Of a stretch of 64,000 nucleotides of DNA, positions 8,390-59,601 are shown piece after piece. Under the pieces are notes generated by a model. It made no database searches. It saw only the letters and a program-made list of their open reading frames with translations, and was not told where the DNA came from. Position 1 is the stretch's first letter; each line of letters begins with the position of its first letter. A program made the position numbers and the translations under genes. Source of the DNA: an uncultured Candidatus Saccharibacteria bacterium (GTDB lineage Bacteria > Patescibacteriota > Minisyncoccia > Phycocordibacterales > UBA9973); NCBI GenBank assembly GCA_964554645.1, contig CAZKPK010000001.1, forward strand, positions 3,697-67,696, given 5' to 3'.

Positions 8390-8437
8390 ATCCACCCCGT
8401 CCTTTGATTACAAAGTCCACCCCTCAAGAGGGGAATC
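8390..8437 (+). repeat. family A hairpin repeat (unit)
   Basis: ATCCACCCCG-[CCTTTGATTACAAAG]-TCCACCCCTCAAGAGGGGAATC; 47 nt identical to 16013-16059; starts 7 nt after pilM stop. Confidence 0.9.
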
Positions 8438-8945: not shown

Positions 8946-9026
8946 ACTATATTTCAACATGAGGAAGCGATATAAACAGAAAAGTAATAATCTAGATTAA
9001 AATAACTATATGCGCAATAGGCAACC

Positions 9027-9112
9027 ATCCACCCCGTCTCGACTAAAGTCGAGTCACCCCTCAAGAGGGGAACGTCCACCCCGACGCAAGCGTCACCCCT
9101 CAAGAGGGGAAT
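9027..9112 (+). repeat. family A repeat, tandem pair
   Basis: Two units: ATCCACCCCG-TCTCGACTAAAGTCGAGT-CACCCCTCAAGAGGGGAA and TCCACCCCG-ACGCAAGCGT-CACCCCTCAAGAGGGGAAT. Confidence 0.9.
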
Positions 9113-9162
9113 GGAATCCAAAATCTCTATATCCATATTGGGAAATTCCTAAAAACAAAATT

Positions 9163-9522
9163 TTGACTGATAGGGCAAAAGATTTAAGAAAGGCGGGTAA
9201 TTTATCTGAAGTTATTTTTTGGCAAACTTTTAAAGATAAAAATAAATTAGGTTTTGATATTGATAGACAAGTTATAATCGGCAATTATATTGTAGATTTT
9301 TTTATTCCCGAACTAGGTTTAGTTTTTGAGATAGACGGTTCAAGTCATGACGATAAGCTTGAATATGATGCTGAACGAGATGCTTTTATGAGAGATTTAA
9401 ATTTAAAAGTGGTTAGAATTCTTGATATTGATGTGAAGAAGAATCTAGGAAGTGTCTATCAATTTGTATTAGAAACAATACATAAAAGAAAAAAGGATGC
9501 ATTTGAATTATTCCCCTCTTGA
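9163..9522 (+). CDS. DUF559 (Vsr-like/PD-(D/E)XK) endonuclease-domain protein
   Basis: LRKAGNLSEVIFWQ..GFDIDRQVIIGNYIVDFFIPELGLVFEIDGSSH matches the DUF559 core. TTG 9163 is my start guess; ORF upstream to 9010 is repeat-encoded. The TGA stop lies inside the right-hand repeat. Confidence 0.75.
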   Translation: MTDRAKDLRKAGNLSEVIFWQTFKDKNKLGFDIDRQVIIGNYIVDFFIPELGLVFEIDGSSHDDKLEYDAERDAFMRDLNLKVVRILDIDVKKNLGSVYQFVLETIHKRKKDAFELFPS

Positions 9523-9596
9523 GGGGTACTCCGACTTCAGTCGGAGTGGGGTGGATGTATGAGGGGTGACCCGATGACCATCGGGTCGGGGTGGAT
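9510..9596 (-). repeat. family A repeat, tandem pair in inverted orientation
   Basis: ATTCCCCTCTTGAGGGGTA-CTCCGACTTCAGTCGGAG-TGGGGTGGAT + GTATGAGGGGTG-ACCCGATGACCATCGGGT-CGGGGTGGAT; reverse complement of family A consensus. Confidence 0.9.
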
Positions 9597-9665
9597 AGCT
9601 GTAGAACCAGAGTTATGCACATTATATTTCACTTAAGTTTGTTTTTGTAATATAATTAAGATACG

Positions 9666-10271
9666 ATGGAGCAGAGTTTCCAAACATCATTTATACCTAA
9701 AAAACCGATAGTGAAAGAACGCGCCATTCCGGCGCGACCTATTGGTATTTTTATCATCATTACTATTTTTGTTTTATTCACCGTGCTTTTGGCAACCGTC
9801 GCTCTTTATTTCTATAAAGGGATTTTGGCAAAGAACATTACGCAAATGGAGAATGACTTAAATCTGGCTAAAAATCGTTTTGAACCTTCTAAAATAACGG
9901 AGCTCCAGCTATTAGACAAGCGTCTGCGCGCATCAAGTGAAGTTCTGTCTCATCATATAGCTATCACGCCTGTCTTTCAAGCATTGCAAGCCATTACTAT
10001 GAAAACTGTCCGTTATACTAAGTTCAGTTATGATTTTGGGAATACGAAAGATGCGAAAGATACGAAAGTGATTATCAAATTAAGCGGCCAGGCAGTCGGT
10101 TATCGCTCGGTTGCTCTGCAATCTGATCTTTTTGCTAAAAATAAAAATTTAATTGATCCAGTTTTTTCCAACCTGGCGCTTGATGACAAAGGCAATGTCC
10201 TTTTTGATCTGGAATTTTCGGTCGATCCGTCTTTGGTTGATTATAAGCAAATGCTCTTAACCCAAAGTTAA
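9666..10271 (+). CDS. PilN-like pilus assembly membrane protein
   Basis: 201 aa; single TM (IGIFIIITIFVLFTVLLATVALYF); position in pilM-N-O series; call is position/topology based. Confidence 0.55.
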   Translation: MEQSFQTSFIPKKPIVKERAIPARPIGIFIIITIFVLFTVLLATVALYFYKGILAKNITQMENDLNLAKNRFEPSKITELQLLDKRLRASSEVLSHHIAITPVFQALQAITMKTVRYTKFSYDFGNTKDAKDTKVIIKLSGQAVGYRSVALQSDLFAKNKNLIDPVFSNLALDDKGNVLFDLEFSVDPSLVDYKQMLLTQS

Positions 10272-10276
10272 TTTTT

Positions 10277-10897
10277 ATGATGCGATTTATTCTGCCAATT
10301 ATTTTGTTAGGAATCAGCGTGGCTGTTTTTATCATGTTCTCTAATCCTATTTACAATGATATTGGGGGATTGCGCGCGCAGACAGCGTCCTTCAATGAAG
10401 CGCTAAATAATTCCAAAATGCTTGAAAATGAACGAGATAAATTAACTTCCAAATATAATTCTATTGATATAGATAATTTAGCAAAACTCCAAAAGCTTTT
10501 GCCGGAAAATATTGACAATATACGCTTGATTCTTGAGATAGAACAGATAGCCTTGCCTTACGGCATGGCCTTGAAGGATGTAAAATACAATGCGACAGCT
10601 GACAAAGATAAAGCAAGCTCTGCGTCTCCTGTAGCCGGGGTTGCGCAAGGTGGCGAAACGGTCCAATCTTCTTCCAAAGATTATGGAGTTTGGGATTTGG
10701 AGTTTTCCACAACCGGTGCTTACAGCAATTTTCTTAATTTTACAAGAGATCTGGAAAGCAATCTTCGAATTGTCGATATATCATCAATTGCTTTTTCATC
10801 TGATACGAGTAGTGATTCCAGTTCGGCCCCCAAGTCTCCGTCTACCGAATCTTATAAATATAATTTTAAAATTAAGACTTACTGGCTAAAAAATTGA
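10277..10897 (+). CDS. PilO-like pilus assembly membrane protein
   Basis: 206 aa; N-terminal TM then coiled coil (LRAQTASFNEALNNSKMLENERDKL); position based. Confidence 0.55.
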   Translation: MMRFILPIILLGISVAVFIMFSNPIYNDIGGLRAQTASFNEALNNSKMLENERDKLTSKYNSIDIDNLAKLQKLLPENIDNIRLILEIEQIALPYGMALKDVKYNATADKDKASSASPVAGVAQGGETVQSSSKDYGVWDLEFSTTGAYSNFLNFTRDLESNLRIVDISSIAFSSDTSSDSSSAPKSPSTESYKYNFKIKTYWLKN

Positions 10898-13625: not shown

Positions 13626-14684
13626 ATGGATTATAAGAAAAAACTTGAAGAACTTATTTTGACCGTTATTCGCGAAAACGGATCGGACTTGCATTTAGGC
13701 ACTGGAAGAGTGCCAGTTATTCGCGTGTCGGGAGAATTGATATTTCTTGCCAAGCAACCAGTTTTTACAAAAGAAGATATGATTGGAATTTTGAGTGAAG
13801 TGTTGGAGAAAGCGAAAGTCCAGAAATTTATGGAAAGTCAGGAAGCCGATTTCTCTTATGATTTCCGCGGGGAAGCGCGGTTGCGCGGCAATGCTTTTTT
13901 TCAGAAAGGTCTAATCTGCGTGGTTTTTCGATTGGTGCCGAAAGTAAAGACTATCGCCGAATTGCATTTACCTGCCATTGTTGCAGATCTTGCCCGTAAA
14001 AAGCAAGGTTTTTTTCTAGTAGTTGGTCCCGTTGGGCAGGGCAAGTCGACCACTCTGGCCGCGATGGTGGATCTAATCAACAATGAAAAGGCGCGCAATA
14101 TCATAACAATTGAAGACCCGATTGAACATGTCTATGTGCCCAATAAATCCATCATCAGCCAGCGCGAAGTCGGTATTGACACCGCCGACTTTCATCTGGC
14201 GCTTAAATCGGCTTTCCGAGAGGATGTAAATGTAATAATGATAGGCGAAATGCGCACGCCAGAAACGATAGCGACTGCCGTAACTGCCGCCGAAACCGGA
14301 CACCTGGTGCTTTCCACTTTGCACACCAATAACGCTTCTCAGACCATAGACAGGATTATCGACTCTTTTCCGGGCAGTCAACAAGATCAAATTCGCTCCC
14401 AGCTTGCCGCCTCGCTGCTGGGTATTTTTTCTCAAAGGCTGATCCCTCGAATTACCGGCGGACTTATTCCCGCCTTTGAGCTTCTTTTAAATAATAGCGC
14501 CGTGTCAAATTTAATTCGGGAGAAACGCACGCATGAAATAGACGTGGTCATAGAAACAGGGATGGAATCCGGCATGATTGACTTGAACCATTCCTTGATG
14601 GAGCTGGTGCGCGCCGGAGAAATTACGATTGAGAACGCTTACCAGTATTCTCTCAATCCTAAGGGTTTGGAACGGATGATTTAA
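13626..14684 (+). CDS. pilT: twitching motility ATPase PilT
   Basis: 352 aa; GPVGQGKSTTLA, FREDVNVIMIGEMR, GHLVLSTLHTN. Confidence 0.95.
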   Translation: MDYKKKLEELILTVIRENGSDLHLGTGRVPVIRVSGELIFLAKQPVFTKEDMIGILSEVLEKAKVQKFMESQEADFSYDFRGEARLRGNAFFQKGLICVVFRLVPKVKTIAELHLPAIVADLARKKQGFFLVVGPVGQGKSTTLAAMVDLINNEKARNIITIEDPIEHVYVPNKSIISQREVGIDTADFHLALKSAFREDVNVIMIGEMRTPETIATAVTAAETGHLVLSTLHTNNASQTIDRIIDSFPGSQQDQIRSQLAASLLGIFSQRLIPRITGGLIPAFELLLNNSAVSNLIREKRTHEIDVVIETGMESGMIDLNHSLMELVRAGEITIENAYQYSLNPKGLERMI

Positions 14685-15957: not shown

Positions 15958-16059
15958 GATTCTCCTCTTGAGGAGTACTCCGACTCAGGTCGGAGGGAGG
16001 TGGATGAGTTTTTCCACCCCGTCCTTTGATTACAAAGTCCACCCCTCAAGAGGGGAATC
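15958..16059. repeat. family A inverted doublet (REPIN-like)
   Basis: Reverse unit GATTCTCCTCTTGAGGAG..GGGAGGTGGAT (15958-16005) faces forward unit TCCACCCC..CCCCTCAAGAGGGGAATC (16013-16059); 18-nt terminal inverted repeats, 2 mismatches. Confidence 0.9.
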
Positions 16060-16134
16060 GCTACCCCTGTGGATAACTTTCTTGCATGTTTTTTTGCCTC
16101 TATATGATATAATTACTCCATTAGAAAAATATTT

Positions 16135-16162
16135 CAGCCATAGGCTGATCCGCCTTAGGCGG
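16135..16162 (-). repeat. family D double-hairpin repeat
   Basis: CAGCCATAGGCTGATCCGCCTTAGGCGG = reverse complement of CCGCC-TAA-GGCGG-AT-CAGCC-TAT-GGCTG. Confidence 0.8.
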
Positions 16163-16203
16163 AAAAAATAAGTCGAAAATATATTATTATTAGTTAATTA
16201 TTA

Positions 16204-17955: not shown

Positions 17956-18783
17956 ATGCTTTTTTTGCTTTTGGTTATTTTTTTCATCCTCGGTCTCATC
18001 ATCGGCAGCTTTTTGAATGTGATAATTTATCGGCTGAATACAGCCAGATCGTTCGGAGGCAGGAGCGCTTGTATGTCTTGTCAGAACAGGCTTTGCTGGT
18101 ATGAACTTATCCCACTCTTTAGTTTTTTGGGTCTTGGGGGGAGATGCCGAAGCTGTAAAACTAAAATTTCTATCCAATATCCGTTGGTGGAACTTGCGAC
18201 TGGCTTGATTTTCGCCTTGTTATTTTTTAAACTGCAAGATGTTTTTTATACTAATTCTCTGGTTTTTTTCATCACTTATGATTACTTTGCTTTATTGTTT
18301 TCACTTCTTCTAGTCATTGCCACTTATGATCTCAAACATAAAATAATTCCGGATATTTTGTCTTTTGCTTTTGGCGCGCTTGCTTTTATTGGCCTATTTT
18401 TCTTCTCCGCCCAAGGCGGATCCGCCTTTGGCGGAAATAATATTTTTTACCCCCATTTTCCCACAGTTTTAGAATTTTTGTCGGGTGGATTAATAGCGTT
18501 ACCTTTTGCTTTTTTTTGGCTTGTATCTTCCGGTCGGTGGATGGGGTTAGGGGATGCCAAGCTTGCGCTCGGCATTGGGTGGTTTTTAGGCATATCTTCT
18601 GCGCTCTCGGCTTTAGTGGTTGCTTTCTGGTCTGGAGCCATCGTCGGAATAATTCTCGTTATTTTTTCCAGAAATAGAAAAATTGGCAGGCTGGGGATGA
18701 AAAGCGAAATTCCTTTTGCCCCTTTCCTAGTTTTTGGCGCGTTTCTAGCTTTTATTTTTGGATTGAATCTTTTTGGAATTTAA
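17956..18783 (+). CDS. pilD: prepilin peptidase (A24 family)
   Basis: 275 aa; CMSCQNRL..CRSCKTKI zinc motif, YPLVE, GLGDAKL active-site Asp. Confidence 0.93.
   Translation: MLFLLLVIFFILGLIIGSFLNVIIYRLNTARSFGGRSACMSCQNRLCWYELIPLFSFLGLGGRCRSCKTKISIQYPLVELATGLIFALLFFKLQDVFYTNSLVFFITYDYFALLFSLLLVIATYDLKHKIIPDILSFAFGALAFIGLFFFSAQGGSAFGGNNIFYPHFPTVLEFLSGGLIALPFAFFWLVSSGRWMGLGDAKLALGIGWFLGISSALSALVVAFWSGAIVGIILVIFSRNRKIGRLGMKSEIPFAPFLVFGAFLAFIFGLNLFGI
18407..18434 (+). repeat. family D-like double hairpin inside pilD ORF
   Basis: CCGCC-CAA-GGCGG-AT-CCGCC-TTT-GGCGG, translated SAQGGSAFGG. Confidence 0.75.
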
Positions 18784-20593: not shown

Positions 20594-23222
<2,629 letters not shown>

Positions 23223-29438: not shown

Positions 29439-31367
29439 ATGAAAATTTCTTATAATTGGCTCAAATGGTATATACCGGAAGCGCCTCCCGCAAACAAACT
29501 TGCGGATATTTTTAATTACCATATTTGCGAAGTGGAGAGTGTCCAACACCGAGTGTTGGACAAAGATAAAGATTGGATTTTTGATTTAAAAGTTTTGCCG
29601 AACCGCGCGCATGATTTACTTTCACATCAGGGAGTCGCTCGCGAGCTTGCTTCACTTTTAGATATCAAATATGTAGATCCCACGCCGAAATATAAAATTC
29701 CCGCCTCCGCCAAGGCTGCCCCCTTCGCTGAAGTGGCTACGAAGGCCAAGTCGGCGGGCAAGCCGGAATTAAAAATTGATGTTCAAACGCCTTTATGCAG
29801 GCGATATATGGGCAGAATTATAAGGGGAATAAAAATCGGTCCCAGTCCGGAGTGGATGGTGAAGCATTTAGAATCAATAGGACAGAGAAGTATAAATAAT
29901 ATTGTAGATGCCGCCAATATTGTAATGTTTGATTGCGGACAGCCGACTCATGCTTTTGATCTGGATAAAATGAATAGCAAGATAATAGTGCGCGAGGCAG
30001 AAAATGACGAAGACATAACCACTTTAGATAATCAGGGAATAAAATTAAAAAGTTCAAATATGGTGATTGTAGATTCTAAAAATATTTTAGCGATTGCCGG
30101 AATAAAAGGCGGGAAGATTGCGGAAGTGGACAATAATACAAAAAATATAATTCTTGAGGTTGCTAATTTTGATCCGGTTTCGGTGCGGAAAACAGCTCAA
30201 GCCTTTAATCTATTTACCGACGCGCGAAAGAGGTTTGAAAATGACCTGTCGCCAGAATTGGCACCATATGCCATGCGCGAACTCTCGGCTCTCATTTTTG
30301 AAATGTGTCCGGACGCTATTTTTGAAGATGTTGTGGATGTTTACCCCCACACCAATGATATTGGTGTGGGGGTTTATCCTGAAAAACAAAAGGAGAAAAA
30401 ACTTTCTTTTTCGGCTGAAAGAATTTCAAAAATTTTAGGACTCAAAGTTTCAGTTAAAGAAATAGAAAATATTTTGCAGAGATATAATTTTAGGTATAAA
30501 GAAAATAAAGGGAAATTTGAGGTTGTTGTGCCACCGATGCGTCTTGATTTAGCAATAGAAGAAGATATGGCGGAAGAGATAGGTAGAATTCTGGGATATG
30601 ATAAAGTAAAACCACAAATTCCCCACATGTCTGACATGTGGGAACCACAGGTTAATGAGATTTATGCAAAAATTTCCTGGGTCAGAAATAAATTATTGGC
30701 TGATGGATATTCCGAAGTGATGACTTATACTTTTCGAGAAAAGGGAGAAATAGAAGTGCAAAATAGCGCTTCCGATAAAAAGTTTTTGCGAACGAATTTA
30801 ACTGATGGATTGAAAGAAAGCGTTAAATTAAATCACGCCAATGCCCCGCTGTTAGGAATTGACGAAATTAAAGTTTTTGAAATTGGAACTGTTTTCAAAA
30901 AAGATAAAGAGCAGATAAATATTTGTTTTAGTGACAAAAAAAATATCACAGAAGTTTCTTTAAATGATTTTTGTAAAGATATGCTTTCTAGTGATTCTCC
31001 TCTTGAGGAGTACCCTTTAGGGGGAGGTGGAAAATTTATCCACCCCGTCGCAAGCGCCACCCCTCAAGAGGGGAATAGATTCAAGATGTGGTCTTTGTTT
31101 CCTTTCATTGCGCGCGATATCGCTGTCTTTGTGCCGGAAAAAATTAAGAGTTTGGAAATAGAAAAAATAATAAAAAAGAATATGGGAAATATGGTGATTC
31201 GAGGTCCGGAACTTTTTGATGAATTCAAAAAAGGCAATCAGATTTCTTATGCCTTCAGATTGGTTTTTCAATCTTACGATCGGACACTGACAGACGCAGA
31301 AGTGAATGAAATTATGGATAAAATAACTGACAAAATTAAGAAGAATAAAGGTTGGCAAGTAAGGTAA
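29439..31367 (+). CDS. pheT: phenylalanine--tRNA ligase beta subunit (reduced architecture, several repeat-derived inserts)
   Basis: 642 aa; MKISYNWLKWYI, LPNRAHDLLSHQGVAREL, B3_4 IVDAANIVMFDCGQPTHAFDLDK, C-terminal FPFIARDIAVFV. Confidence 0.93.
   Translation: MKISYNWLKWYIPEAPPANKLADIFNYHICEVESVQHRVLDKDKDWIFDLKVLPNRAHDLLSHQGVARELASLLDIKYVDPTPKYKIPASAKAAPFAEVATKAKSAGKPELKIDVQTPLCRRYMGRIIRGIKIGPSPEWMVKHLESIGQRSINNIVDAANIVMFDCGQPTHAFDLDKMNSKIIVREAENDEDITTLDNQGIKLKSSNMVIVDSKNILAIAGIKGGKIAEVDNNTKNIILEVANFDPVSVRKTAQAFNLFTDARKRFENDLSPELAPYAMRELSALIFEMCPDAIFEDVVDVYPHTNDIGVGVYPEKQKEKKLSFSAERISKILGLKVSVKEIENILQRYNFRYKENKGKFEVVVPPMRLDLAIEEDMAEEIGRILGYDKVKPQIPHMSDMWEPQVNEIYAKISWVRNKLLADGYSEVMTYTFREKGEIEVQNSASDKKFLRTNLTDGLKESVKLNHANAPLLGIDEIKVFEIGTVFKKDKEQINICFSDKKNITEVSLNDFCKDMLSSDSPLEEYPLGGGGKFIHPVASATPQEGNRFKMWSLFPFIARDIAVFVPEKIKSLEIEKIIKKNMGNMVIRGPELFDEFKKGNQISYAFRLVFQSYDRTLTDAEVNEIMDKITDKIKKNKGWQVR
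29700..29758. repeat. GC-rich imperfect long hairpin inside pheT
   Basis: CCCGCC..CCTTCG / CGAAGG..GGCGGG arms; translated PASAKAAPFAEVATKAKSAG; strong local GC excess. Confidence 0.55.
30343..30373. repeat. 31-nt perfect palindrome inside pheT
   Basis: ACCCCCACACCAAT-GAT-ATTGGTGTGGGGGT; flanked by GTTTAC/GTTTAT; translated YPHTNDIGVGV. Confidence 0.85.
30622..30642. repeat. family B variant palindrome inside pheT
   Basis: CCCACATGTCTGACATGTGGG (21 nt), translated PHMSDMW (compare HRSDLW from canonical copies). Confidence 0.8.
30993..31076. repeat. family A inverted doublet inserted in frame in pheT
   Basis: GATTCTCCTCTTGAGGAG..GGGAGGTGGA + ATCCACCCCGTCGCAAGCGCCACCCCTCAAGAGGGGAAT; 84 nt = 28 codons (DSPLEEYPLGGGGKFIHPVASATPQEGN). 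Confidence 0.9.
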
Positions 31368-39948: not shown

Positions 39949-42117
39949 ATGCGACTCAAAACTCTTGAACTGAATGGCTTTAAATCTTTTTCTCAAAAAA
40001 CAGTTTTGGAGTTTGATAACAGTATTGTCTGCATTGTCGGTCCGAACGGTTCAGGAAAATCAAATGTAGTAGAAGCCATCCGTTTTGTCTTGGGCGAGCA
40101 ATCAATGAAATCAATGCGTGGCAAGACGGGCGTTGATCTCATTTTCAAAGGATCCAAAAATTTGCCTAGGAAAACGCGGGCGGCCGTTACAATATATTTC
40201 AATAACTCTGACAAAATTTTTAGGCTTGAGGATGGTGTAGGAGAAAACATGAATTTGAATTATGACACTATCAGCATAACGCGCCAGGTTTTCCCTGACG
40301 GACTCAATAAATATATTTTAAATGGGACAGAAGTGCGCCTGAAAGATATTCACCACCTTCTGGCCTCGGTTAACATAGGTTCTTCCGGGCATCATATTAT
40401 TTCCCAGGGCGAGGCTGATAGGATTCTGAATGCCAGCCCAAAAGATAGGAAGGAAATGGTGGAAGATGCGTTGGGGCTCAAAATTTACCAGTATAAAATA
40501 AAAGAATCTGAGAGAAAACTGGAAAGAACAGAGAACAATATGAAAGAAGTGACCATGTTGCGCAGAGAAAATGCTCCGCACCTTAATTTCTTAAAGAAAC
40601 AAGTAGAAAAATTTGAAAGGGCGAAAGAAATGCAGGCAGAGTTAGCAATTCTCTACCAAGAATATTTAAAAAAAGAAAACGTTTATTTAAATAAAGAGAA
40701 GGAAAATTTTCTCGCAGAAAGAAATAAAATAGCCAAAGAACTGGAAAGTGTTGTTAGTAAAATTTCTCTGACTGAAGACAGTGGTTCAGCTAAGGGAAAT
40801 CAAAAAATAGAGGAGCTAAGAACTATTGAGCAAAAATTAAATGAAATCCGCAGCGCCAAGGGAGAAATGAACAGAAAACTGGGAAGAATTGAAGGGATGA
40901 TAGAGGCCAAACAGAATAGAGTTAAAATTTCTGGCCGGTGTCCCATGTGTGGCAGAGAGTGGGGGGAAATGAGCAAAGAACAACTCGAAAACAGAGAAAA
41001 CAATCAGCAAGAATTAGCAGAATTGAAAAATTCTCAAGCTGGTATTCTAACGCAGGTGCAGGAAATGGAAAATAAAGAGAAAGAGCTTGTCGATCAGATA
41101 GAAGAATTGAAGCAGGAAATAAATAAACAGATGGAAACCTTGCGCGATTTGGAGCGGGAGAAGTTCAGCTTTAAGGTTAGGCATCAGGAATTGTCTTCAG
41201 CTTTGGAACTGGTGCGCATCAAAGAAACGAATTTAAAAGGCAGGCTTGAAGCCTTTGAAAGTGAGATCAAAGAAGGTGTAGCGCTTATAGGTCAAGAGAT
41301 TTTGTCCTATCCGCCCGAGGCGGACCAGCCTTGGGCTGGTAAAGAAATAGATGAAACAAGGCAAGCTGAGTTAAAGAAAAAAATTGAGCGTTTGAAAATA
41401 AAATTGGAAGATGCCGGTCTTGGCGGCGGAGCGGAAGTTTTGAAAGAATTCAAAGAAGTTTCGGAGAGGGATAATTTTTTAGCGAAAGAAATGGAAGATT
41501 TATCTAAAAGCATGGTGGCGTTGCAAAAGCTCATAGAAGATTTAAAGGAAAAGATAGACACAGAATTCAAGGAGGGTATCAAAAAAATAAACAAAGAATT
41601 TCAAGAATTTTTCTCCTTAATGTTTGGCGGGGGGACGGGATCTCTTGCGATAGTGGTGGAGAATAAAAAGAGACGAAGTATGAGCGAAGAAGAGGCTAAA
41701 TTCAGCGAAGCTGAATCGCCCGACGCTTCTGAAGAAGCGTTTAGGGAAGAGATTGTTTTTGAACAGGGCATAGAAATAAATGTTTCACTTCCTCATAAAA
41801 AGGTCAAAGAGCTTCAGGCGCTCTCGGGCGGGGAGCGATCACTCACTTCTATTGCTCTTCTCTTTGCGATGTCGCAAGTGAATCCTCCGCCATTTTTGGT
41901 GCTTGATGAAACCGATGCTGCGCTGGACGAAGCCAACTCGCGCAAATATGGAGATATGTTGGAAAAACTTTCCAAACATTCTCAGCTTATTGTTGTTACC
42001 CACAACCGCGAGACGATGTCCCGCGCCGGCGTGCTCTATGGCGTAACGATAGGCGGAAATGACACCTCCAAGCTTCTTTCTGTTAAATTCGAAGAAGCCA
42101 CCCAAATTGCGAAATAA
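39949..42117 (+). CDS. smc: SMC-family chromosome segregation ATPase, short form with central CxxC instead of a hinge
   Basis: 722 aa; N-head LNGFKSF..GPNGSGKSNVVEAIRFVLGEQS; C-head LSGGERSLTSIALLFA..LVLDETDAALD; CPMCGREW at residues 331-338; no hinge-like segment seen. Confidence 0.9.
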   Translation: MRLKTLELNGFKSFSQKTVLEFDNSIVCIVGPNGSGKSNVVEAIRFVLGEQSMKSMRGKTGVDLIFKGSKNLPRKTRAAVTIYFNNSDKIFRLEDGVGENMNLNYDTISITRQVFPDGLNKYILNGTEVRLKDIHHLLASVNIGSSGHHIISQGEADRILNASPKDRKEMVEDALGLKIYQYKIKESERKLERTENNMKEVTMLRRENAPHLNFLKKQVEKFERAKEMQAELAILYQEYLKKENVYLNKEKENFLAERNKIAKELESVVSKISLTEDSGSAKGNQKIEELRTIEQKLNEIRSAKGEMNRKLGRIEGMIEAKQNRVKISGRCPMCGREWGEMSKEQLENRENNQQELAELKNSQAGILTQVQEMENKEKELVDQIEELKQEINKQMETLRDLEREKFSFKVRHQELSSALELVRIKETNLKGRLEAFESEIKEGVALIGQEILSYPPEADQPWAGKEIDETRQAELKKKIERLKIKLEDAGLGGGAEVLKEFKEVSERDNFLAKEMEDLSKSMVALQKLIEDLKEKIDTEFKEGIKKINKEFQEFFSLMFGGGTGSLAIVVENKKRRSMSEEEAKFSEAESPDASEEAFREEIVFEQGIEINVSLPHKKVKELQALSGGERSLTSIALLFAMSQVNPPPFLVLDETDAALDEANSRKYGDMLEKLSKHSQLIVVTHNRETMSRAGVLYGVTIGGNDTSKLLSVKFEEATQIAK
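41311..41339 (+). repeat. family D double hairpin inside smc
   Basis: CCGCC-CGA-GGCGG-AC-CAGCC-TTG-GGCTG; translated PPEADQPWAG. Confidence 0.8.
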
Positions 42118-45287: not shown

Positions 45288-45403
45288 TTATATACAATAC
45301 AGATATGGAGCAGTGCATCCGGTCGTAAAACTGCTAAACATTTCCACCTGAGGTGGATTCGCCTTTGGAGGAAAAAATTAAAAGTAATTTACTGAAATAA
45401 CAT

Positions 45404-53100: not shown

Positions 53101-53791
53101 TCCCGCCTCTGGCGGGACAGGTGTAAAATCTGCTCACTCCCGCGATATTTCAGGATCCGGCGGGGAAAAAATAATCAAAGTGCTTTCAGATCTGGAAGAT
53201 AGTAAGGCGGGGGCTAAAAACGAAATAGAATATCTTGTTCCGTTTCACAGAATGCCTACCGTTAAAGCAGGTGATCACATAAAGAAAGGGGATCTCCTAA
53301 CTGACGGGTCAGCGGATATTGCTGAAATGTTTAAATTTGGCAACAAGGAATTAGTCGAAAATTATATAATTCGGGAAATAAACAAAGTTTATGAATTGCA
53401 AAGCGCTTCAATTTCCAGAAAGCATACGGAAATAATTATCCGCCAAATGTTTTCGCGCCGAAAAATAAAAGACGCGGGCGACACTAATTTTTCCATCGGC
53501 GATATTGTTGAGAATACCGCATTTATAGAAGAAAATCAGAGAGTTGCGCGCTTGGCGGTTAAACCGCCAAGCGCGCTTGGCGGTTTAACCGCCAAAGCAG
53601 AAACAGTGGTGCTTGGTATCACGGAAGTGTCGCTTCGCACTAAAAGTTGGCTCTCGGCGGCTTCGTTCCAAAACACCAATCGCGTTCTTATTGAAAACGC
53701 GGTCAAGGGCGGGGTAGATTCTTTGAGAGGGTTAAAAGAGAATGTTATAATCGGTAGGTTAATTCCGGCTGGAACTGGATTTAAAAAATAA
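50120..53791 (+). CDS. rpoC: DNA-directed RNA polymerase subunit beta'
   Basis: 1223 aa; Zn CYCGKY..CEKCGV, NADFDGDQMAV, GEAVGIIAAQAIGEPGTQLTLRTFH. Confidence 0.98.
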   Translation: MKTLNTTEFNSIALRLASPEQIKEWSFGEVTKPETINYRTGRSERGGLFDEKIFGPEKDYECYCGKYRRIRYKDIICEKCGVEVTRSIVRRERMGHIELGTPVSHIWFLRGVPSRMSILLNISVTDLEKVIYFAGYIITKVHEDEKEAVIANLDKEYKSKLKNATDDDTREKLKNLLSITKKEIGEIYEGKVLNEISFHHYSLKYGTCFEANIGAEAIYSIFKNLDLDKLKTHTEKMIEKASVAEKEKLQKRLSLIRAMTYAGIRPEWMFLTVFPVIPPVLRPMVALDGGRHATSDLNDLYRRVINRNNRLKKLKEINAPDVILRNEKRIIQEAVDALIDNSIAKQNDSAAMSQSQKRPLKSLSDNLKSKQGLFRQNLLGKRVDYSGRSVIVVGPELKLNQCGLPKHMALELFRPFVISKILQAELAFNIRGANKLIEERGGEVWAMLEEVIAGKYVLLNRAPTLHRLGIQAFNPILIEGNAIQVHPLVCQAFNADFDGDQMAVYVPLLEEAQWEAKEFMASNKNLLKPQNGDPIVHPRMDMVLGSFWMTKSIEGEVGEGKYFSRPNTAVTAYDYGIISMRAKIKVLPMDKPKYKKFNGEIFETTVGRIIFNSILPDDFHYVNDEMTQDRLSSLLDELIMHSGVENIPHILDTIKAFGFKYSTISGTTWGLDNVSVSSEKPKIIAEGKKLEKEIISQWQEGLLSEEEKYQKVIEVWTHMKKNLEKVLPKTVDKHSSTYDIFTSKARGTMSSLMQMTGMIGLIQNNQGKTLEFPIIPCYQEGLSPIEYFVITHGARKGASDTALNTAKAGYLTRRLVDVAQDVVITEVDCGTKEGRIVTKENISGIEIPLSKNIRGRVLAGDLKNKNGKVVYKKGFLVTKEEAYNIEGAGFTEVFVRSPLTCRTVHGLCVMCYGLDLGRNRLVELGEAVGIIAAQAIGEPGTQLTLRTFHAGGVAGTDITTGLPRVEEIFERRIPKNPAIISETDGEVIEIKIKDPASGGTGVKSAHSRDISGSGGEKIIKVLSDLEDSKAGAKNEIEYLVPFHRMPTVKAGDHIKKGDLLTDGSADIAEMFKFGNKELVENYIIREINKVYELQSASISRKHTEIIIRQMFSRRKIKDAGDTNFSIGDIVENTAFIEENQRVARLAVKPPSALGGLTAKAETVVLGITEVSLRTKSWLSAASFQNTNRVLIENAVKGGVDSLRGLKENVIIGRLIPAGTGFKK
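53102..53116. repeat. GC hairpin within a GC-rich segment of rpoC
   Basis: CCCGCC-TCT-GGCGGG; surrounding 53095-53170 encodes DPASGGTGVKSAHSRDISGSGGE. Confidence 0.55.
53546..53597. repeat. family C palindrome doublet inside rpoC
   Basis: GCGCGCTTGGCGGTT-A-AACCGCCAAGCGCGC (31-nt perfect palindrome) + CTTGGCGGTTTAACCGCCAAAG; translated LAVKPPSALGGLTAK. Confidence 0.92.
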
Positions 53792-55761: not shown

Positions 55762-57579
55762 ATGTCCTCATCAGTTGACCAAATTAAATCACGAATAGAC
55801 ATCCTCTCGCTTGTAAGCTCTTATATCAAGCTAGATAAGGCAGGAGCGAGTTGGAAAGCCAAATGTCCGTTTCATAATGAAAAAACACCCTCATTTTTTG
55901 TCTCGCCGGAACGGGGGAGTTATTATTGTTTTGGTTGCGAGGCTTCGGGAGACATTTTCACTTTTGTGGAAGAATTTGAAGGGTTGGATTTTAAGGGCGC
56001 TCTGAAACTTTTAGCAGATCGCGCAGGAGTGGTGCTTGAAGTTTACAGTCAGGAAAAGAAAGAAGTAGGTGAATTGATTTTTTTGGAGAAAGAAAAATTA
56101 TATCGAGTGATGGAAGAAACCACGAAGTTTTTTGAAAATAATTTTCCGCCCAAGGCGGATCAGCCTCGAGCTGAAAAGGAAATAAAAGAAGCATTAGAGT
56201 ATCTGAAATCGCGTGGTTTAACCGATAAAACTATCAAAGATTTTAGAATAGGTTATGCCATTCTTGATTGGCGAACACTTTATGATTACCTAAAGTCTAA
56301 GAATTTTTCTGATGAAGAAATAGAGCTTGCCGGATTGGCCAAGAAACCGGAAGACAAGACAAAAGCAATGTATGACCGCTTTCGCGGACGCATAATGTTC
56401 CCAATTTCCGATTCCAGTGGCCGGATTATTGCTTTTTCGGGAAGAATTCTGATTGATGATGGAAAATCGGCGAAGTATTTAAATAGTCCGGAAACCCCGA
56501 TATTTAATAAATCTTCCGTGCTTTTTGGCATAGATAAAGCAAAAGATTCCATCCGCAAAAATAACTTTTCCATTTTAGTTGAAGGGCAGATGGATTTAGT
56601 TTTATCGCATCAGGTCGGTTTTAAAAATACTGTTGCATCTTCTGGCACGGCGATGAATGATTCGATAATATCTAAAGAGAACATTATAAATAATTTAGGG
56701 CTTGTTTGCAGATTATCTAAAAATATCGTTCTGGCTTACGATGCTGACAAAGCGGGAGTGAATGCTTCCAATCGTTTTGCAAAAATCGCATTATCTTTAG
56801 GGATGGATGTGAAAGTGGCCAGTATGAGAGAGGGTGTCGATCCAGCCGATATTATCTCCAAAGAGGGTAAAGATGCGTGGCATCAAGCAATCCGAGATTC
56901 AAAACATTTTATTCCATTTATGCTAGAGCGAATCTTGAAAGATGCATCTGGTGATGGAAGAAAAGTGGGCAGAGGAATTCAAGAACGTCTTTTGCCTTTT
57001 CTGAAGGATTTAGACAGCGCGATGGAAAAATCCCATTTTATCAAACTTATTAGCGATAAATCCGGCATAGCTGAAAAAGCTCTAATGGAGGATTTGCAGA
57101 AAGTAGAGTCAGAATTGAAATATGAAACAGAAGAAATCAAAATCGCGAAAGAAAATGTGGACAAAAAATTGAGAAAAGATCCGATTGAACGCAGACTGCT
57201 GGGAATAGCTTTTTGGCAGGAAAGTGTTAAAAGTAAGATCGTAGATCCAGAAATCATTTTTGCGAAACTAGGTAAAGTGAAGGAATATTATAAAGACAAA
57301 AAAGAAGATTTAATTTTCGAAGCGGAAGCTTTTTATTCCAATAGCGAAAACTTACAAAAAGATGTGCGAGAGATGCTACTTTCGATTGAAGAAGAATATC
57401 TTAATGAGGAGCTTGTTAAGAAAATGATAGAACTTAAAAATCTGAAAGATGAAAAGGCTAAATCCAATGTAATTGGATCGCCCGACACTTCAGCAAAAGT
57501 GTTTAGGGACGAAGCAGAAATTTTAAAAAGAATAAATGAAATAAATAAGAGGAAAGAAGAAATTAAAAATAGTCGCTAA
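55762..57579 (+). CDS. dnaG: DNA primase
   Basis: 605 aa; Zn ribbon [45 protein letters not shown]. Confidence 0.96.
56146..56173 (+). repeat. family D double hairpin inside dnaG
   Basis: CCGCC-CAA-GGCGG-AT-CAGCC-TCG-AGCTG; translated [10 protein letters not shown]. Confidence 0.8.
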
Positions 57580-59551: not shown

Positions 59552-59596
59552 ATTCCCCTCTTGAGGGGTGGCTCGGTAATCCGAGACGGGGTGGAT
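59552..59596 (-). repeat. family A repeat unit directly after dsbA-like stop
   Basis: ATTCCCCTCTTGAGGGGTGG-CTCGGTAATCCGAG-ACGGGGTGGAT. Confidence 0.9.
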
Positions 59597-59601
59597 GTAT
59601 T

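Follow-up and report, generated by a model that had tools for sequence, protein, structure and literature searches.

The pheT gene and its in-frame hairpin insert

The 64,000-nt stretch of DNA considered here (the window; contig CAZKPK010000001.1 of assembly GCA_964554645.1, from an uncultured Candidatus Saccharibacteria bacterium) contains, at 29439..31367 of the plus strand, the gene pheT for the beta subunit of phenylalanine--tRNA ligase (642 aa), which hosts in frame, at 30993..31076 of the same strand, an inverted doublet of a short palindromic DNA repeat called family A. A database protein identical to the pheT product bears the NCBI annotation phenylalanine--tRNA ligase subunit beta, with Candidatus Nomurabacteria as its taxon, and Pfam places in it the B3_4 domain (aa 120-290), the B5 domain (323-387), a catalytic-like module (405-491) and the FDX-ACB domain (B8, anticodon-binding; aa 552-642, 31092..31364, plus strand). 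The doublet, GATTCTCCTCTTGAGGAGTACCCTTTAGGGGGAGGTGGAAAATTTATCCACCCCGTCGCAAGCGCCACCCCTCAAGAGGGGAAT, is 84 nt long and palindromic; it corresponds to codons 519-546, which are stop-free and translate to DSPLEEYPLGGGGKFIHPVASATPQEGN, a peptide in which Pro, Gly and Glu are abundant, and the five residues RFKMW separate its end from the FDX-ACB domain. The first-pass annotation had described the element as exactly 28 in-frame pheT codons without a stop, immediately ahead of FDX-ACB; letters and translation, when checked, agree with this, and the Pfam domain starts 5 residues past the insert.

Within the doublet, a left unit of variant form (30994..31031, plus strand, as are the features that follow) runs ATT-CTCCTC-TT-GAGGAG-TA, continues with the small hairpin CCC-TTTA-GGG and ends in GGAGGTGGA; a 7-nt spacer, AAATTTA (31032..31038), which differs among orthologues, leads to an inverted right unit of canonical form (31039..31076), made of TCCACCCC, the small hairpin GTCGC-AA-GCGCC and ACCCCTCAAGAGGGGAAT. 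The window has a low GC content (38%), and the doublet reaches 0.55 versus 0.37 in the remainder of pheT. It folds into a single long hairpin, of -43.5 kcal/mol as RNA (z -4.7) and -19.2 kcal/mol as DNA (z -3.7). That an essential aminoacyl-tRNA synthetase subunit carries a translated, mobile-looking hairpin pair, as had been proposed, is supported, the linkers of orthologues being non-homologous. Rfam returned zero families, both for the window at gathering thresholds and for 30900-31150 with E values of up to 1; neither a T-tract terminator nor a promoter pattern was seen at the doublet.

In an AlphaFold2 model of PheT (36 aligned sequences, mean predicted local distance difference test score (pLDDT) 64, overall weak), the insert falls within aa 518-554, which have a pLDDT <50 and are devoid of secondary structure, and the FDX-ACB domain reaches a pLDDT of ~90. 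The model predicts, with these qualifications, that the insert is a disordered interdomain loop between two folded domains, in the hinge through which the anticodon-binding B8 domain of the enzyme is connected with the catalytic-like B6/B7 module; the simplest view is that of a flexible loop that is tolerated. The tryptic peptides predicted across its junctions are ..DMLSSDSPLEEYPLGGGGK and FIHPVASATPQEGNR.

Architecture of family A

Family A units are about 35-48 nt long and doublets 80-107 nt. Each unit leads from a terminal hairpin, ATT-CCCCTC-TT-GAGGGG, through a small centred hairpin of variable sequence to the motif CGGGGTGGA; its termini are (A/G)ATTC... and ...GGGGTGGA, and the tetranucleotides GTAG or CGTC are found at neither end. 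[quoted passage not shown] A variant unit is recognized by the signature CTCCTC..GAGGAG..GGAGGTGGA, in which the C-to-T and G-to-A changes are mutually compensatory in the terminal hairpin.

Among the matches listed, a variant unit is joined to a canonical one in 48 of 51 doublets, and the canonical form makes up 107 of 110 singlets; the pheT doublet and an intergenic doublet of the window, at 15959, both obey this rule, which is new here. Since a doublet nearly always consists of one variant and one canonical unit, it is an entity of its own, akin to the REPINs discussed below. The 216 units collected among the matches listed contain 133 distinct variable segments with 88 distinct stems, and yet a centred stem of at least 4 bp is found in 84% of the segments versus 51% of shuffles, so that the small-hairpin structure is kept while its sequence is free. 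Compensatory changes of this kind are found in the pheT copies themselves (GGCGC/GCGCC, GGCAC/GTGCC, GGCT/AGCC).

The interdomain hinge in PheT orthologues

An alignment of the best 120 PheT homologues, which are 592-634 aa long and 60-70% identical to the window protein, displays a hypervariable stretch between a conserved ..EFC.. helix and ..FKMWSLFPFIARD.., that is, at the hinge. The shortest alleles of this stretch, of ~12-15 residues and of the type (P)xDFSLEPRSYNLEA / DFSLEPRSYNLEA, have a GC content of ~0.3 and are unstructured, with z at or above 0; the DFSLEPRSYNLEA type is unrelated to the family A insert. Longer alleles are nearly all strong hairpins (z -4 to -12, GC 0.42-0.6) and fall into mutually unrelated peptide and DNA families, namely AFALGD.GQGTH, FLNGLAGVGDPENRGPEK, SPDAF..QKH, GYFSAEKFLVLAPSR, LQPSAGTFR, ALPASGLRH and PPR..GGE..GGG, several of which have additional copies in the same loci, some of them in frame in pheS. 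A comparison with orthologues had been suggested by the first-pass annotation, which named a homologous linker of equal length as what would refute its reading: none was found, the linkers being non-homologous and about 12 to 50 aa long. The 28 residues, which it suggested checking as extra ones, are not purely additional: against a short allele (e.g. L011), the doublet replaces ~12 native residues for a net gain of 16 aa. Nothing indicates that phenylalanyl-tRNA synthetase (PheRS) needs the insert, and unrelated hairpin-derived peptides occupy the hinge in relatives.

A doublet at the same site, in the same frame and in the same orientation is present in 7 of 80 pheT loci of species-representative genomes (L001, L003, L007, L015, L030, L034 and L035), to which metagenome contigs add L162 and L103, plus a nested case, L127. 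The pheT doublet is not private to this genome, being shared by at least 8 other Nomurabacteria lineages, and the carriers, from at least nine lineages, are not mutual closest relatives. Over 9 carriers the conserved arms (53 nt) are 98.7% identical, and third positions of identical-amino-acid codons in flanking pheT are 52-53% identical; the arms have thus stayed almost unchanged within a gene whose synonymous sites are saturated. Core lengths in these carriers are 74, 77, 83 and 86 nt, equal modulo 3, with arms that always read SPLEE.. and ..TPQEGN, a regularity that speaks against splicing or skipping because a removed segment would be under no such rule. At the left junction 0, 1 or 6 native residues are kept, and the right junction adjoins (K/R)F.MW, which, on the evidence of the aligned sequences, fits an insertion followed by trimming of redundant linker. 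In the nested case (L127, ~961-1001), the left arm of the linker is degraded (SPLLEY) and a repeat encoding SPLQGEGLGVR lies between the two family A units.

In a neighbour-joining tree of PheT, calculated with the linker removed and 100 bootstraps, carriers are nested, at 87-100% bootstrap, in clades that they share with alleles of the short-linker type or of other families: P0029 groups with two short-linker proteins (99%), and the carriers P0003, P0015 and P0037 group with three other families (100%), with P0082 and P0106 (94%) and with P0089 (99%), respectively. The scatter of the carriers, together with the short allele's own conserved sequence in many clades, requires either repeated acquisition of the doublet or recombination of linker alleles. 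The variable parts of the doublet, 90-97% identical among four carriers of different clades, point the same way, agreeing with repeated acquisition or allele exchange. As to co-transfer of flanks, the 70 residues upstream of the hinge display a small excess similarity among carriers (residual +0.04), which is a weak hint as the pairs are non-independent, and no such excess was found in the FDX-ACB domain. Among 5.8 billion proteins no filled/empty strain pair was found for the insert, the nearest other PheT being 70% identical.

Family A in other genes and genomes

An exact-pattern scan of public metagenome contigs recovered at least 120 contigs with family A, and it is from these loci that the host range given here is drawn. 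Together with the window they yield 156 copies or arrays: singlets in forward (56) or inverted (54) orientation, doublets (44) and tandems (2). A stop-free frame of at least 150 codons surrounds 46 of the 156 (about 30%, among the matches listed). Host proteins recognized by Pfam include UvrB, UvrD/PcrA, type I HsdS, PurD, KsgA/RsmA, a protein of the AIR-synthase type, FtsK, in which the membrane and alpha domains lie on either side of the copy, and large surface proteins. In UvrB a doublet lies between the helicase domains at the same site in two contigs (L084 919-1022, L167 3593-3681), and in PurD a singlet or doublet-like copy is found at one site of the C domain (L116 747-788, L199 2638-2679). 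An uncharacterised family without a Pfam match has a doublet at one site in four contigs and in both orientations, the canonical arm coming first in L102 (8916-8999) and L147 (784-888) and the variant arm in L108 (484-576) and L155 (439-533). Recurrent occupation of a precise site across lineages, a homing-like feature, is so found in pheT, UvrB, PurD and this uncharacterised family.

Inside open frames the arms read preferentially (N/D)SPLEEYP...TPQEGN; the variant arm lies 5' in 13 of the 15 doublets within an ORF (among the matches listed; ORF, open reading frame). Readings vary with frame, one arm giving SPLEE/SPLEG or IPLLRG and the other TPQEGN, HPSRGE or PLKRG; because the arms also occur in intergenic DNA and in both orientations, the conserved object is the DNA and not the peptide. 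Units downstream of stop codons have no orientation bias (22 forward vs 19 inverted, among the matches listed), a count that lends no support to a strand-specific transcript function. Peptide searches were made with two queries too short to be informative: the insert peptide (32 aa) had 2 phmmer matches among 1.84 billion representatives, and a composite query of 59 aa, built from two doublet peptides, had 6 short matches in a word-indexed search.

Within the window itself, the right half of the pheT doublet matches 9074-9112 with 3 mismatches, where shuffles lead one to expect 0 matches, and the terminal 17-mers of the doublet recur at 8420, 9057, 9096, 9510, 15959, 16042 and 59552. Outside pheT, family A occupies five sites of the window, all at gene ends or intergenic, and its density is ~0.11 units per kb. 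An inverted singlet (8391..8436) lies 8 nt past the stop codon of a pilM-like gene; two tandem inverted units (9028..9112) are directly upstream of, and overlap, the 5' part of an ORF for a DUF559 protein, whose 3' end is taken up by a forward unit (9510-9557) and a 5'-truncated second unit (9558-9597; together 9510..9597); an intergenic doublet of one variant and one canonical unit (15959..16058) starts 6 nt past a pilC-like stop codon; and a singlet between convergent genes (59552..59597) lies 5 nt from the stop of a minus-strand thioredoxin-like ORF.

In an 813-kb Paceibacterota contig, L201, of ~75% DNA identity to the window, the DUF559 module and the post-pilM and post-pilC copies of family A are syntenic within the type IV pilus cluster. 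The architectures at these places (9550-10568 and 16845-16993 in L201, 8391-9597 and 15959-16058 in the window) differ, with a singlet in one facing a doublet in the other and with unequal spacers.

A DUF559 gene bracketed by family A

The bracketed gene (9010..9522, plus strand) encodes a protein with a Pfam DUF559 match (PF04480, E 1.5e-21) and without a Y1 transposase domain; it belongs to the Vsr-fold PD-(D/E)xK type and matches the Protein Data Bank entry 3HRL, an 'endonuclease-like protein' (E 4e-9). Its TGA stop is located within the downstream unit, inside the arm ATTCCCCTCTTGAGGGG (9510-9526), so that the earlier statement that family A supplies the stop codon of this gene holds. In a survey of PD-(D/E)xK proteins, Vsr, DUF559 and DUF2726 were grouped, with the structures 1cw0, 3hrl and 3r3p, and the Vsr/DUF559 group includes a group I intron homing endonuclease (PMC3424549). 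Nuclease activity is, from the sequence, predicted for the family A-linked DUF559 subfamily.

In repeat-bearing loci, close DUF559 homologues (68-91% identity) are flanked by units within 6-105 nt in 9 of 9 cases, three distant homologues are without flanking units, and in 1.28 Mb of pheT loci there is no DUF559 homologue. A collection of 5.8 billion proteins contains 1548 homologues at E up to 1e-20; the best 120 of these 1548 are 75-90% identical to the window protein, as compared with 60-70% for the best PheT homologues, and many of them are on 1-2 kb contigs. The traces of family A can be read in these proteins: in 97 of the best 120 an inverted-unit peptide (..STPS....HPSRGE or ..PLKRG) is N-terminal to the core WNPKSLYPYWEIPKNKL, and in 91 of the 120 the C-terminus is FPS, from the TTC CCC TCT TGA of a forward unit. 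The motif D..E.DG..H is kept in 119 of the 120. The module is usually arranged as inverted unit - DUF559 - forward unit, with units of the same family at both of its ends around a protein that is not a known transposase, and it is found in at least four genomic contexts. In two contigs (L132 1857-2407, L149 923-1509) a forward unit, DUF559 and an inverted unit form one open frame between two HsdS target-recognition domains. The bracketing of this highly conserved DUF559 gene by family A, an almost constant feature, is new here. The picture is that of an enzyme gene that is conserved, inherited for the most part vertically and flanked by repeats, accompanied by dispersed, long-lived doublets, as described for the REPINs and their associated enzymes.

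Comparison with known repeat systems

Rickettsia palindromic elements (RPEs) are palindromic repeats found in frame in many unrelated and often essential genes, where they contribute a conserved peptide at positions compatible with the fold, the same insertion being present in orthologues of related species (PMC10969869). Family A resembles them in being a palindrome in frame in protein genes that contributes a conserved peptide, and in its pheT copy, which sits where the fold appears to tolerate it, in the loop of aa 518-554 with pLDDT <50 (in a weak model of mean pLDDT 64). It differs from them in phylum, in size (a unit of ~40 nt and a doublet of 80-107 nt, against ~100-150 bp), in that most of its copies are outside genes, in having conserved arms around a free hairpin and bracketing a DUF559 gene, and in that its pheT site is common to several unrelated hairpin families. 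By mode of existence family A is closest to RPEs, from which phylum and unit size set it apart, and membership is not claimed.

Repetitive extragenic palindromic (REP) sequences usually differ between species, whereas the arm sequences of family A are conserved across species-level lineages. REP sequences also form inverted doublets with a spacer, REPINs, which are described as long hairpins and as the unit of selection; the REP-associated tyrosine transposase (RAYT) gene is described as a conserved, largely vertically inherited and REP-flanked enzyme gene, and the copies as long-lived at orthologous sites (PMC3116915). The likeness lies in the short palindromic units of family A and in its spacer-containing doublets, conserved as a unit (48 of 51 variant plus canonical; hairpin z -4.7). 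The flanked gene, however, codes for a Vsr-fold PD-(D/E)xK protein of the DUF559 family and not for a tyrosine (HUH) transposase of the IS200/IS605 type, and no RAYT was seen at the bracketed gene, the rest of the genome not having been searched for one. Moreover, family A has no GTAG or CGTC head, and 46 of its 156 copies are in open frames, whereas REPs are extragenic by definition. By architecture family A is closest to REPINs, yet it fails the defining features of REP/RAYT systems.

Intragenic bacterial MITEs include the Correia-type elements. Such MITEs, e.g. ERIC, are small and non-coding with terminal inverted repeats, and can give in-frame fusions with host ORFs (PMC10969869). Family A differs from them in having no definable target-site duplication and, it appears, no insertion sequence with a known transposase and the same ends, in conserved parts that include internal motifs, and in the frequency of singlets. 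With the homing endonuclease I-Bth0305I (PDB 3R3P) there is a likeness in that the DUF559 gene falls in the same PD-(D/E)xK group and in that same-site recurrence across species resembles homing; the pheT copy, on the other hand, has no endonuclease ORF, is neither intron nor intein and bears no sign of splicing in its sequence. An intron, intein or homing-endonuclease element was rejected as an identity of the pheT insert: Rfam gave no match at E values up to 1, the 84 nt contain no separate ORF, and intein blocks are missing from the 28 aa.

Origin and maintenance of the pheT insert

We consider it probable, at roughly 70%, that the 84 nt are a copy of a selfish-type structured DNA repeat, which is tolerated in the interdomain hinge of PheT and translated there into a disordered loop of 28 aa. 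The arms may be recognized by the DUF559 nuclease or by some other conserved protein; such recognition would hold them constant and drive copying, whether through recombination started by the nuclease or through a hairpin-based transposition. Of the few sites in pheT where an insertion survives, the hinge that precedes FDX-ACB and follows the catalytic-like module would be one, and selection would admit only stop-free copies of 3n length. After insertion, redundant native linker residues may be deleted, and linker alleles may pass between lineages via homologous recombination; trimming and allele exchange would together produce the look of a replacement and the patchy distribution. A function of the insert in PheRS would be unnecessary for any of these steps.

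Several observations count against a selfish copy tolerated in the hinge. Translation of the 84 nt is what we infer from the open frame. No transposition or homing event, filled/empty strain pair or excision product has been observed, and the flanks of 49 doublets contain no consistent direct repeat that could be a target-site duplication, being only A/T-rich (..TTAATT[ ]AATAAA..). The link of DUF559 to family A is positional, and DUF559 is not known to act as a transposase or in homing. The synteny with a contig of ~75% DNA identity suggests that family A is largely vertically inherited and long-lived and not actively mobile. The metagenome loci were chosen by their canonical motif, and the in-ORF status of their copies comes from stop-free frames and not from gene calls. 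Finally, ~106 kb around pheT in eight other carriers contain 0 other family A units (P ~1e-5 at window density), so that the conservation of arms in pheT copies without neighbours is not easily put down to an active population of repeats, and the pheT copy might itself be under selection, given how isolated its conserved arms are. The near-perfect arms of these isolated copies could reflect selection there, conversion from distant copies or lateral re-introduction.

Selection is at the centre of one alternative, by which a single ancient doublet insertion in an ancestor of the Nomurabacteria concerned was co-opted and then kept, to be lost or replaced later elsewhere; its peptide might serve as a hinge, or an mRNA hairpin at the domain boundary might slow ribosomes for co-translational folding. 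The hairpin is indeed exactly between two domains, site, frame and orientation are alike in 9 of 9 carriers, the arms are ~99% conserved even in genomes without nearby units, four carriers have variable parts of 90-97% identity, and other family A copies are syntenic between genomes. Carriers are, however, found in several supported clades that also contain the short AT-rich allele, which could not be re-created after a loss without recombination, and the left junction differs among them (0, 1 or 6 native residues). The arm conservation is not specific to pheT, as intergenic copies have identical arms, and at least seven unrelated hairpin families occupy the same hinge elsewhere, so that no particular hinge peptide appears to be needed. 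With these points on either side, a co-opted ancient insertion seems unlikely. Arms that serve the host as a nucleic-acid signal (of the DNA-uptake type, a sequence bound by a repair or chromosome protein, or an element that stabilises mRNA) and are merely tolerated in coding DNA would explain why they are conserved across lineages whose PheT is 60-70% identical to that of the window, why many copies lie within a few nt of stop codons and why copies are syntenic between genomes, some hosts being genome-maintenance genes (UvrB, UvrD, FtsK). A signal is decidedly unlikely, though, at a density that is ~0.1 per kb for the window and zero over ~106 kb of other carriers, without orientation bias downstream of genes (22 vs 19), without a T-tract terminator after the doublet and without an Rfam match; and a repeat that tightly brackets a single nuclease gene would more typically be one with a cognate enzyme. 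DNA uptake sequences in particular have a short core that recurs very densely, about once per kb of genome, and family A, at ~0.11 units per kb of the window and with no unit in the ~106 kb of other carriers outside pheT, was rejected as one.

In some yeast mitochondrial genes, GC-rich hairpin inserts are skipped by the ribosome, and a stable GC-rich hairpin within an AT-rich gene, such as that in pheT, might likewise stay untranslated, by skipping or by an intron-like removal from the mRNA. This is highly improbable in view of all pheT copies, which hold both arms in the same open frames despite changes in length, and of in-ORF copies elsewhere, which are stop-free in the host frame, since a removed segment would be unconstrained; moreover, no intron family is matched and 28 aa are far below intein size. 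Mitochondrial 'byp' inserts break the frame or carry stops and need skipping; a translational-bypass insert of this type was discarded because the insert is always 3n in length and stop-free in the host frame. The source being a metagenome-assembled genome, in which repeats can misjoin contigs, and many DUF559 homologues being on 1-2 kb contigs, a chimeric join induced by the repeat has also to be weighed; it is scarcely conceivable, given that at least 9 independent assemblies, produced in different studies, have the insert at one and the same codon, always with the ORF and flanking domains intact.

To return to a selfish repeat copied into a tolerant hinge, a wider reading can be built on it, which we regard as less likely than not, its three parts being taken jointly. 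Family A and DUF559 might form an undescribed REPIN/RAYT-like partnership in bacteria of the candidate phyla radiation (CPR), with a Vsr-fold nuclease in place of the HUH transposase; the doublets might be copied into, or maintained at, precise permissive sites (pheT, uvrB, uvrD, purD, ftsK, ksgA) by a homing-like, recombination-dependent route; and the PheT hinge, together with a site in PheS, might be a landing pad at which at least seven unrelated hairpin families interchange, so that linkers of core proteins are continually rewritten.

Significance

Genomes of CPR bacteria (Patescibacteria) are very small and streamlined, and are usually described as repeat-poor. Here, an essential synthetase subunit has four hairpin-type inserts, and the family of one of them is conserved across lineages, occurs inside several core proteins and is positionally tied to a nuclease domain without an assigned function. 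If the DUF559 link is true, a role would be found for a very widespread DUF subfamily (1548 homologues at E up to 1e-20), and a second, mechanistically different long-term association of repeat and enzyme, of the REP/RAYT type, would come to light. The same-site recurrence in pheT, uvrB and purD would provide concrete cases of selfish hairpins becoming protein linkers. On the practical side, such inserts inflate and diversify marker proteins and break assemblies. In the searchable literature no link of RPE- or REP-like elements or of DUF559 to CPR bacteria was found, an absence that is not proof of novelty. The bracketing of DUF559, the asymmetric doublet rule and the multi-family hotspot at the PheT hinge are the parts most worth attention.

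Other hairpin inserts and repeats

Besides the doublet, pheT of the window contains three further inserts, which with it account for the length of 642 aa versus ~594 aa in the shortest orthologues. A second in-frame hairpin at 30344-30372 (aa 301-311, VYPHTNDIGVG) consists of a perfect 13-14 bp stem, CCCCCACACCAAT-GAT-ATTGGTGTGGGGG (z -5.1); the window has no other copy of it, most orthologues lack it, and a GTTTA direct repeat flanks it. The hairpin insert at 30620-30644, CCCCACATGTCTGACATGTGGG, belongs to a family, D9, that is also present at 14683, 34058 and 34365, and a GC-rich insert at 29718-29765 encodes APFAEVATKAKSAGKP (aa 94-109; z -1.85). The stretch PPRGEGSPDHFSNDLGTKENKH of the window pheS was considered as a hairpin insert and found unsupported (z -0.7).

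In PheT orthologues a second insert site lies ~25 aa upstream of the hinge, near FEIGTVFKK, where PARNASPASNASRSDSGWHSDA.. or PARNVSSIASAGG is found (L020, L023, L077, P0086, P0087). Other hairpin families combine a conserved core with locus-specific outer stems (L026 5941-5990 and its pheT linker, L008 9397-9514/3278-3395, L004 9392-9510/2220-2337, L049 2241-2372), and several of these core-plus-outer-stem copies are in frame in pheS. In L026 the core of 50 nt is 100% identical between the pheS and pheT copies, and the outer stems, of 10-25 bp and perfectly complementary, differ per locus; the sharp boundary of identity suggests that cores were inserted in the middle of palindromes older than themselves, or that the flank was duplicated in inverted form. 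The window has, in addition, a hairpin family of CCGCC-AAGG-CGG doublets (D1; 16131-16165, 18403-18437, 41307-41341, 45340-45374 and 56142-56176) and another, CTTGGCGGTTTAACCGCCAAG (D2; 21354-21809 and 53551-53602).

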